Source: Candidatus Eiseniibacteriota bacterium
GTDB lineage: Bacteria; Eisenbacteria; RBG-16-71-46
Assembly: GCA_021414165.1 (NCBI GenBank)
Contig: JAIOPA010000175.1
Span: forward strand, 1-24,710
DNA: 24,710 nucleotides
Reading direction: 5' to 3'
Part shown: one piece after another, positions 17,417-20,203 of the stretch
Position numbering within the stretch: the first letter of the stretch is position 1
Layout of the letters: the number at the start of each line of letters is the position of its first letter
Translations under genes and position numbers: made by a program
Notes under the pieces: model-generated
What the model was told of the DNA's origin: nothing
Databases searched by the model: none
Seen by the model: only the letters and a program-made list of their open reading frames with translations

Positions 17417-17839
17417 TCAATGCGACAGCGCCGCGACGCCGAAGAACAGCTTCACCTCGCGCTCCGCCGAGGGAACGCTGTCCGAGGCGTGGACCGAGTT
17501 GCGGCCCTTGGACTCGGCGAAAAGCTTGCGGATCGTGCCCTCGGCCGCGGCGGCCGGGTCCGTGGCGCCGATGACCTCGCGCAGCTTGGCCACGGCACCC
17601 TCGCGCTCCAGGCAGCAGAGCATGACCGGGGCAGACGTCATGAAGTCCACGAGCTCCGGGAAGAAGCCCTTGCCGACGTGCTCGGCGTAGAACTCGTTGC
17701 ACTGCTCGCGGGTCAGGCGGGTGTAGCGCGCCTCGACCAGCTTGAAGCCCTCGCCCTCGACGTGGGCGATGATCTTGCCGACCAGGTTACGGGTGGTCGC
17801 GTCCGGCTTGACGATGAACAGCGTACGTTCGATGGCCAC
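17417..17839 (-). CDS. ndk: Nucleoside diphosphate kinase
   Basis: GTG start with SD AAGGAG; [33 protein letters not shown] (catalytic His). Embedded in the ORF-track entry 17417..18475. Confidence 0.97.
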
Positions 17840-17930: not shown

Positions 17931-18161
17931 CTACTTCTTGTTGCGGGCCGCTGCCTTGGCCGGCTGCTTGGAAGCCTTCTTGGCGACCTTCTTGGCCGGC
18001 TTGGGGGCGGGCTTGGACTTCTTGGCCGGCTTGGCCGCCGCCTTCTTGGCGGGGGCAGCCTTCTTGGCCGGCGCGGCCTTCTTCGGAGCCGCCTTCTTGG
18101 CAGGCGCCGCCTTCTTGGCCGGAGCCGCCTTGGCCGGGGCCTTCTTCGCAGCTCCCTTGGC
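17931..18161 (-). repeat. Imperfect (A)KKAAP peptide repeats (~18-nt unit) forming the SucD tail
   Basis: Repeated gccttcttggc on the plus strand with variable third codon positions. Confidence 0.9.
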
Positions 18162-19067
18162 CCTCGCGCGGCGCCGCTGCAGCAGCTCGGCGACCAGGCC
18201 CGGGATCTCGGACGGGATGCGCGCCACCGGCACGCCTGCCGCCTCGAACGCCGCCATCTTCTCGGCCGCCGTACCCGTGCCGCCCGAGATGATCGCACCG
18301 GCGTGGCCCATGCGCTTGCCCGGAGGCGCGGTCTGGCCGGCCACGAACGCGACCACGGGCTTGGAGACGTGGCGCTTGATGAACTGCGCCGCCTGCTCCT
18401 CGGCGTTGCCGCCGATCTCGCCCATGAGCACGATCGCCTCGGTCTTGGGATCGGCCTCGAACAGCGTGAGCGCATCGATGAAGTCGGTGCCGATCACGGG
18501 GTCACCGCCGATGCCGAGACACGTGGTCTGGCCCAGGCCGGCGTCGGTGAGCTGCTTCACGACCTCGTAGGTGAGCGTGCCGCTCTTGCTCACCACGCCG
18601 ATCGGGCCCGGCGTGCAGATGTGACCGGGCAGGATGCCGACCTTGGACTGGCCCGGCGTGATGAGACCGGGGCAGTTGGGGCCGATCAAGCGAGGACGGC
18701 CGAGCGTGTTGTTCGGGCCACGCAGGTTGTTGACCTTGTGCCACGCGGCGAGCGTGTCGCGCACCGGCACGCCCTCGGTGATGCACACGATGAGCGCGAT
18801 GCCGGCATCGGCGGCCTCGTGGATGGCGTCGGCGGCGAAGGGCGCCGGCACGTAGATCACCGAGGCGTTCGCCTTGGTGGCTTCCACAGCCTCGGCGACC
18901 GAGTCGAACACCGGCACGCCGTGGATCTCGGTGCCGCCCTTACCGGGCGTGACACCGCCCACGACCTTGGTGCCGTACGCGATCATCTGCTGCGTGTGGA
19001 ACGCGCCATCGCGGCCGGTGATGCCCTGCACGATCAGACGGGTGTTGCGGTCGATCAGGATGCTCAC
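17931..19067 (-). CDS. sucD: Succinyl-CoA synthetase alpha subunit with histone H1-like C-terminal tail
   Basis: MSILID...[38 protein letters not shown] (phospho-His); GTGA overlap with sucC. Confidence 0.97.
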
Positions 19068-20203
19068 GCCCCCACCTCCTGCGCCTTCTCGATCACCATG
19101 CGCACGGCTTCATCCATGCTGGTGGTGGCGCTGAGACCAAAGTCATTCAGGATCTGCCGCGCCTTCTCCTCGTTCGTCCCCGTGAGGCGGATGACGAGCG
19201 GCACGGACAGCGGCGACGCGGTGAGCGAGGCCACGATGCCGTTGGCGACGTCGTCGCAGCGCGTGATGCCACCGAAGATGTTGAACAGGATGCCGCGCAC
19301 ATGCGACTCGGTGGTGATGATCTTGAGCGCCGCGGTCACCTTCTCCGGGTTCGACGAGCCGCCGATGTCCAAGAAGTTCGCGGGTTCGCCGCCGTAGTGC
19401 TTGATCACGTCCATGGTGGCCATGGCGAGGCCGGCGCCATTGACGACACAGCCGATGTCGCCATCGAGCTTCACGTACGACAGGCCCTTCTCACGCGCCA
19501 GGCGCGCACCGGGCGTCTCCTCGGCGGGGTCACGCCAGTTGTCCCAGTCCTTGTGGCGGAACTCGGCGTTGTCGTCGAGGACGACCTTGGCATCGAGCGC
19601 GATGACCTTGCCCTCGGGCGTGACGGCCAGCGGATTGATCTCGGCGAGCGAGCAGTCGCCCTCCATGTACACGCGGTAGAGACGCATGAGGATGTCGGCC
19701 GCCTGCGACGCCTGCTTGAAGTCCGGGAACAGCGGCGTCATGAGGTTGCGCGCGTGGTACGAGCGCAGGCCCTCAAGCGGGATGTGGAACTTCACGATCT
19801 TCTCGGGCGCGGTCTTGGCGACCTCTTCGATGTCCACGCCACCCTCGGCGGACAGCATGACGAGCGGCGCCTTCTTCTCACGGTCCATGACGATCGCGCA
19901 GTAGTACTCCTTGGCGATGTCGGCGGCCTGGGCCACGAGCACCTTGTGCACGGGCAGGCCCTTGATGGTGAGCGCCAGGATGTCGCGCGCCTTGTCGTAG
20001 GCCTCGTCGGGGTTGTGCGCGAGCTTCACGCCACCGGCCTTGCCGCGGCCACCGGCCTGCACCTGCGCCTTGATCACCACGGTGCCGCCGAGCGAGGCCG
20101 CGATGTCACGCGCCTCTTCCGGCGTGCCCGCGACCTGACCCGGCAGCACCGGCATGCCGAAGCGCGCGAACAGTTCCTTGCCCTGATATTCGTGGAGGTT
20201 CAT
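19064..20203 (-). CDS. sucC: Succinyl-CoA synthetase beta subunit
   Basis: [64 protein letters not shown]. Start reassigned to ATG 20203 (SD GGGAGA). Confidence 0.97.

Follow-up and report, generated by a model that had tools for sequence, protein, structure and literature searches.

The succinyl-CoA synthetase (SCS) alpha subunit, SucD, from a Candidatus Eiseniibacteriota bacterium continues past its normal end into a long, disordered and acid-free polycation. Comparable tails are kept across several families of Eisenbacteria and, judging from a phylogeny of SucD cores, were gained separately on the same enzyme in the Steroidobacter family. That the tail exists and that selection acts on it are both near certain, and by analogy with characterized tails of similar composition it may hold this Krebs-cycle enzyme to nucleic acid.

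An ordinary SucD core with a polycationic extension

The window, the whole stretch of 24,710 nucleotides that was analysed, belongs to a metagenome-assembled genome (MAG) of 2.1 Mb that is 80% complete and whose nearest named relatives are Candidatus Eisenbacteria. The features considered here are as follows.

19064-20203, minus strand: sucC, succinyl-CoA synthetase beta subunit (Pfam ATP-grasp_2, 1.3e-66; Ligase_CoA, 6.2e-28; ORF coordinates)
17931-19067, minus strand: sucD open reading frame including the tail, 378 aa
18171-19067, minus strand: sucD core, aa 1-299 (NF004230, Pfam, alignment to E. coli SucD, AlphaFold2)
18162-18179, minus strand: QRRRAR, aa 297-302, at the junction of core and tail (reading of orthologues; AlphaFold2 helix 285-309)
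17934-18170, minus strand: polycationic disordered tail, aa 300-378 (composition, pLDDT, tails of orthologues)
18033-18122, minus strand: (P)AKKAA / KKAAP repeat array, aa 316-345, within the tail (Tandem Repeats Finder (TRF); unit positions and codons)
17931-17933, minus strand: TAG stop of sucD, followed by a 91-nt spacer to ndk
17417-17839, minus strand: ndk, nucleoside diphosphate kinase (Pfam NDK, 7.4e-50; GTG start after AAGGAG)

Every feature of the SucD family that we looked for was found: equivalog-level scores (NF004230, 453 bits against a cut-off of 336, covering aa 2-297 and profile positions 2-289 of 291; TIGR01019, 451.5 bits against a cut-off of 353.2), two Pfam domains (CoA_binding PF02629 at aa 6-99 and Ligase_CoA PF00549 at aa 159-279), the catalytic-His (phosphohistidine) loop MGHAGA at aa 253-258, which is nearly invariant in the SucD alignment, and a sucC partner. 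An alignment with E. coli SucD (288 aa, 1JKJ) covers aa 2-288 (5.5e-113); the two proteins have the whole core in common (1JKJ/2SCU; about 65% identity where alignable over aa 2-288), and share both domains, the GHAGA loop and an upstream sucC with overlapping stop and start codons. By these comparisons the core is predicted to be an ordinary, catalytically intact SCS alpha subunit. It ends at about aa 299, as judged from the ends of untailed relatives about 45 residues after GHAGA; E. coli SucD stops at residue 288, whereas the protein in the window has 79 further disordered, basic residues. Net charge of the core is about -3. We rejected charge compensation, under which tailed lineages would have more acidic cores, as the cores of tailed and untailed relatives have the same mean charge, about -3.

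The original prediction described a 76-residue basic extension with 27 Lys and no acidic residues, and our recount of positions 17934-18161 agrees in full (31 Ala, 27 Lys, 11 Pro and no Asp or Glu). The complete extension, about 79 residues (300-378), has a net charge of +30, the same 27 Lys, no Asp or Glu, and a C-terminal ARNKK. At 68% GC, base composition alone would give about 1.3% Lys codons, so that 27 of 76 is far beyond chance; the open frame taken alone is not significant, with about 18% of random 79-codon stretches at the same GC free of stops. Four exact KKAAP units (aa 318, 324, 329 and 335), preceded by QRRRAR, are present as first described, and PAKK occurs six times. Variation at third codon positions between repeats, also claimed at the outset, holds up: the four units differ only by synonymous third-position changes (GCG/GCC/GCT and CCT/CCG/CCC). 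Lys is always encoded by AAG in the tail, as in the core, and GC3 is 0.90 in the tail versus 0.93 in the core. TRF detects an 18-nt period array at 18037-18131 (5.4 copies, 80% matches), and the repeated tract spans only about 30 residues, with KKAAP/PAKKAA units in 4 to 6 copies.

AlphaFold2, run on a 45-sequence alignment, gave pLDDT above 90 for the core up to about aa 300, a last helix at aa 285-309, and from aa 310 onwards coil devoid of secondary structure with pLDDT of 44-57. QRRRAR forms the basic end of that last core helix, and RRRxR is conserved in the genus and family. The histone H1-like composition noted in the original prediction is borne out, the tail being Lys/Ala/Pro-rich and disordered like the C-terminal domain of eukaryotic linker histone H1, with PAKK units resembling S/TPKK (PMC9239181). 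Linker histone H1 also has a winged-helix globular domain, whereas a Pfam scan of the 378-aa protein (E<=0.01) returned three SucD-type domains only and no Linker_histone domain, so the protein is not a histone. The same threshold gave no report of PF07382 (chlamydial Hc2-like) for this protein; a precomputed match to that family exists for a single Steroidobacter-type tailed SucD, P0342. The tail contains neither GRP nor RGRP, and hence no AT-hook of the HMGA type, and no tandem KPAA array of the AlgP/PhaF type with its tens of copies. Searching a 5.8-billion-protein index with aa 297-378 alone gave two matches, both SucD, under a composition correction that strips low-complexity matches, and a protein-atlas look-up with aa 250-378 returned sub-threshold leads only.

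The tail is a genuine gene end

We considered and rejected a lost stop codon, a frameshift or a fused small gene as the source of the extension. In untailed families ndk lies about 50 nt past the sucD stop with no gene between them, and indels between strains preserve the frame. An independent activated-sludge metagenome contig (3.4 kb, depth 40) spans ndk, the tail and the SucD core; it differs from the window by 33 substitutions and by indels of +3, +6 (clustered at 18113-18119) and -3 nt only, all of which keep the frame. The best 120 database matches in the 5.8-billion-protein index are all 338-393 aa long. A survey of SucD length over the lineage, on which the original prediction had staked its case, likewise found close orthologues tailed and none of these close kin lacking the extension. 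The tail is in frame and coding-like.

The AAG/GCC repeat itself (18025-18134) draws hundreds of short foreign contigs from DNA and RNA runs (X2, X3, X4 and X15), with depth rising to about 2,800 versus about 4 on the flanks, metatranscriptome included, which makes this depth uninformative on expression; coverage by contigs from the RNA runs is limited to parts of the locus. These communities appear to hold many K/A-rich coding repeats.

Positive charge, not sequence, is conserved in Eisenbacteria

We read orthologues from 30 relatives belonging to the genus, family and order of the MAG, a few copies being cut by contig ends, and every complete copy runs in frame into a basic tail. Across families f1, f3, f10 and f16, 35 of 35 complete orthologues are tailed (26-232 aa, median 65), and tail-length alignments indicate a tail in f2 as well. 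Families f7, f11, f12, f13, f15 and f17, together with Gemmatimonadales, have normal ends. Six Eisenbacteria families thus have the same operon with an untailed SucD, which indicates that the tail is dispensable for SCS function.

Over the 35 tails (2,458 residues), K+R make up 36%, A 26%, P 9% and D+E 0.8%, and net charge per tail residue ranges from +0.27 to +0.50. The sequences cannot be aligned even between species of the same genus, and the K:R ratio varies among relatives from Lys- to Arg-dominated (the latter at loci L014 and L021). A dependence of Lys on GC3 was significant in the Steroidobacter family only (rho -0.42, p 0.02) and was absent in Eisenbacteria. From these comparisons it is positive charge that is conserved, and not lysine as such or the AKKAAP unit: the AKKAAP repeat of the original prediction is real, but it is specific to this genome. 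Tail sequence turns over completely through slippage and in-frame indels while its length class, its approximately 36% K+R and its scarcity of acidic residues are kept. Basic residues also cluster at the very end, with at least three among the last four residues in 30 of 35 tails against about 15% expected from tail composition.

Lack of sequence conservation, lengths of 26-232 aa and a tandem array at the DNA level are what would be seen if the tail had no ligand and were a tolerated or weakly beneficial low-complexity expansion typical of high-GC lineages, whether as a solubility aid or 'entropic bristle', as protection of the C-terminus or as neutral slippage; the six untailed families fit this as well. 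Neutral drift, however, would admit acidic residues and stops, which is hard to square with the D+E content above or with the finding that 0 of 35 orthologues have lost the tail over family-to-class divergence.

Basic tails arose separately on SucD

A MAG labelled 'uncultured Steroidobacter sp.' encodes a SucD with a different C-terminal core helix and a 92-aa K/A/P tail. Of 30 loci read in the Steroidobacter family, 29 hold complete genes, and 28 of these are tailed (17-143 aa; K+R 38%, D+E 0.8%; several with more R than K). Cultured isolates are among them: Steroidobacter sp. S1-65 (376 aa) and Povalibacter uvarum (352 aa) have tails of the AKKAP type.

In a maximum-likelihood tree of 103 SucD cores, f1+f3 and f10 fall inside a 39-row clade (support 97/93) that also holds untailed f7+f12; f16 stands alone, next to untailed f17; the Steroidobacter family forms a clade (support 99/99) with one apparent tail loss; and P0124 stands alone. 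Well-supported branches force at least three changes of tail state. The tailed groups are separated by untailed ones on this tree, which argues for independent origins, and by core phylogeny basic tails are judged to have arisen separately on SucD in the Steroidobacter family. Such a separate gain on the same enzyme, retained in nearly all Steroidobacter-family genomes and with a basic terminal cluster in both lineages, is again not what a ligand-free expansion would lead one to expect.

P0124 (L136:4001-5086, GCA_053488695.1) is itself a SucD 58% identical to that of the window with a 65-aa K-rich tail, and it has no sucC beside it; upstream lies an alpha-amylase gene on the opposite strand and downstream a Cauli_VI-domain gene. 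When the 150 best representatives at 50% identity were inspected, the majority of the long SucDs had Arg/Cys/Trp-rich, out-of-frame-looking ends that are probably gene-call or frameshift junk, and clean K-rich tails occurred in P0123 and P0124 only.

Among the closest 120 database relatives of each lineage (P0002-P0122 and P0274-P0393, matches that are close kin of one another), 35% of Eisenbacteria-type and 64% of Steroidobacter-type proteins end in ARKK or ARKKK, mostly as (P)ARKK(K). ARKK occupies only 0.06-0.09% of internal tail positions, and the terminus in the window, ARNKK (17934-17948), is a variant of it. Basic C-termini are common in bacteria. The (P)ARKK(K) terminus may be a short linear motif, convergent or transferred, and we offer it as a lead; its frequency in the closest relatives also speaks against an expansion that binds nothing.

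Other basic tails in the same genome

A six-frame scan of the MAG found about ten ORFs with K-rich, acid-free segments. One encodes the B12-binding subunit of methylmalonyl-CoA mutase (TIGR00640, 155 bits; G000 C131:1133-1861, L097/L106), which has a Pro-rich linker and then a basic tail, some 115 residues past the domain including 31 Lys; this tail is present in the 21 complete f1 copies read and absent from f2, f8 and f10. The mutase subunit is a second succinyl-CoA-handling enzyme with such a tail. K-rich, acid-free extensions also occur on myo-inositol-1-phosphate synthase (Ino1, C-terminal), RimO (N-terminal, about 95 aa), ribosomal protein S16, a PilZ protein and a DUF1801 protein, and three further tailed ORFs (C378, C81 and C416) had no Pfam match.

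Five identified extension carriers: contigs C372, C53, C471, C333 and C192; loci L105, L099, L100, L098 and L101

With about nine other basic-tailed proteins in the genome, the SucD signal could partly be a habit of the lineage, and at least ten ORFs with such tails in a 2.1-Mb assembly would suit a tail that is merely tolerated. Against this, the mutase tail is confined to f1 whereas the SucD tail spans f1, f2, f3, f10 and f16, which implies that the SucD tail is older and more widely held. Taking this together with the charge conservation, retention and separate gain described above, we regard a ligand-free tail as unlikely.

The second tailed succinyl-CoA enzyme bears on a different proposal, that the tail lysines act as an acyl-sensing switch or sink, being succinylated by succinyl-CoA or succinyl-phosphate (+1 to -1) so as to release or regulate SCS. 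Succinyl-CoA succinylates lysines non-enzymatically, abolishing DNA binding by Abf2p/TFAM, and loss of SCS alpha raises succinylation in yeast about threefold (PMC8477199); the mutase subunit, tailed throughout f1, would fit the same scheme. But the Arg-dominated tails of L014, L021 and several Steroidobacter-family members cannot be acylated, and with many tails Arg-rich, a lysine-acylation switch cannot be the conserved function. We judge this proposal highly improbable; lysine acylation is at best an add-on in K-rich members.

A tail of this kind has also become embedded in a curated model. The last 70 or so positions (967-1044) of the valine-tRNA ligase (ValRS) model NF011492 (PRK14900) match SucD tail residues 292-366 at 24 bits, and the MCM tail at 42 bits. 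The model describes a different enzyme and the match is purely compositional; to our knowledge no function is assigned to its tail. NF011492 is thus an instance of a K/A-rich tail of a housekeeping enzyme built into a profile, and it can give spurious low-level ValRS hits.

ndk adjacency is independent of the tail

sucC lies directly upstream of sucD, its stop overlapping the GTG start of sucD (GTGA, 19064-19067), an arrangement suggesting that translation of the two SCS subunits is coupled. ndk is the next gene after sucD, on the same strand and 91 nt downstream; a scan of the spacer, weak for this phylum, found neither a sigma-70-like promoter nor an intrinsic terminator. The original prediction linked the tail to NDK, with the two enzymes supplying NTP locally. 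Synteny comparison does not bear this out: Eisenbacteria families share the order sucC-sucD-ndk whether their SucD is tailed or not, as do Gemmatimonadales, and adjacency therefore lends no specific support to a story joining tail and NDK. The position of ndk beside sucD is an old operon feature.

A complex of SCS and NDK is reported in P. aeruginosa and in mitochondria, according to references given in PMC5126846, and PMC3917248 describes defects of SCS subunits as a cause of mitochondrial DNA (mtDNA) depletion. Mitochondrial SCS with nucleoside diphosphate kinase (NDPK) thus offers a precedent for SCS acting beside a genome. It has no basic tail there, and in the window the adjacency of ndk does not depend on the tail.

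A candidate electrostatic tether to nucleic acid

The mechanism that we propose starts from a disordered Lys/Ala/Pro polycation of about 79 residues (+30) added after the last core helix of SucD, which would act through charge alone. SCS is normally an alpha2-beta2 complex, so that each complex would carry two tails (about +60) and could serve as a bivalent electrostatic tether to a cellular polyanion. The polyanion would most likely be nucleic acid, either nucleoid DNA or RNA, and through the tether succinyl-CoA/succinate turnover and substrate-level NTP formation would take place beside that polymer, leaving the enzyme chemistry of SCS unchanged.

Several bacterial proteins carry comparable tails. 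AlgP and PhaF of Pseudomonas have disordered, basic C-terminal domains of Lys/Ala/Pro-rich KPAA repeats that function in DNA binding and in the placement of polyphosphate (polyP) and polyhydroxyalkanoate (PHA) granules (PMC9239181). Like the SucD tail, these are very basic, disordered tandem-repeat segments attached to an unrelated folded domain. They differ in unit and length (KPAA over 154-195 aa, against (P)AKKAA in a tail of 79 aa), no sequence homology was detected, and AlgP and PhaF are structural or regulatory proteins whereas SucD is a metabolic enzyme. In Mycobacterium smegmatis, PMC3553676 reports that a PAKKA-repeat C-terminal tail of Ku modulates DNA binding. As in SucD, this is a Lys-rich, low-complexity PAKK(A) tail on a conserved protein and is patchy among lineages. 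Mycobacterial HupB and TopA likewise have Lys-rich tails. Ku, HupB and TopA already act on DNA, and we know of no nucleic-acid function of SucD.

Nucleic acid is favoured as the ligand because tails of matching composition, where experiments have been done, bind DNA and position granules, and on that analogy tethering to the nucleoid can reasonably be inferred. On balance, and with modest confidence, we therefore read the conserved charge of the tail as that of an electrostatic tether of SCS to nucleic acid, the ligand being deduced from composition alone. Such a polycation would bind to anionic membranes or to polyphosphate as well.

Long polybasic stretches bind acidic phospholipids, and the product and substrate of SCS feed the membrane-bound succinate dehydrogenase (SDH). 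The tail might accordingly bind the anionic inner membrane face (phosphatidylglycerol (PG) or cardiolipin), holding SCS beside SDH in a membrane-proximal tricarboxylic acid (TCA) metabolon, for which a charge of +30 and the lack of acidic residues are as suitable as they are for DNA. The tail has, however, no amphipathic or hydrophobic element, and the tails nearest to it in composition for which data exist bind DNA or granules, which leaves membrane attachment improbable.

Attachment of SCS to polyphosphate granules, perhaps coupling polyP, NDK and NTP supply, was among the roles first suggested. AlgP, a protein of charge +55 that carries a KPAA-repeat tail, came to light through granule proteomics and is enriched on polyP granules (PMC9239181), and the SucD tail resembles that of AlgP in composition. 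The suggestion is weakened by the distribution of polyP kinases, which were mostly not found in the tailed genus, in contrast to the AlgP/PhaF setting: PPK1 (PF02503) was detected in 0 of 15 genus genomes (G001-G015) and 1 of 25 relatives, and PPK2 (PF03976) in 2 of the 15, one of them with 6% contamination. Several of the negative genomes are 95-99% complete, all of these genomes keep the tail, and control genomes scored correctly. We consider a polyP tether the least probable of the roles weighed here. Separately, the genus (G001-G015) may make little or no polyphosphate through known kinases.

Returning to the nucleic-acid tether, a broader and more tentative extension is that SCS is a nucleic-acid-associated enzyme in several unrelated bacterial lineages (at least one besides Eisenbacteria and Steroidobacteraceae), its recruitment having happened repeatedly by way of a polycationic tail whose terminus is often (P)ARKK. 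We hold this to be possible but doubtful. If true, bacteria would have a counterpart of the connection of SCS/NDPK with mtDNA maintenance, with NTP or succinyl-CoA chemistry carried out on the chromosome or on RNA.

Discussion

Our literature search found no description of a lysine-rich or basic extension of SCS alpha (SucD), nor any report joining Steroidobacter and SCS, and database entries for the tailed proteins read simply 'succinate--CoA ligase subunit alpha'. The type of tail is known: H1-like Lys/Ala/Pro tails are a feature of proteins that handle DNA or belong to granules, among them AlgP, PhaF, Ku, HupB and TopA. Its recurrent attachment to SucD appears to be undescribed.

A tail that is long kept and independently gained on a Krebs-cycle enzyme suggests that the cellular location of SCS is under selection. 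Tailed SucD in the cultured Steroidobacter sp. S1-65 and Povalibacter uvarum makes the question accessible to bench work beyond metagenomes. If the ligand is the nucleoid or RNA, the tail would be a simple natural case of spatially organised bacterial central metabolism, and would echo the unexplained link between SCS, NDK and the maintenance of mitochondrial DNA.
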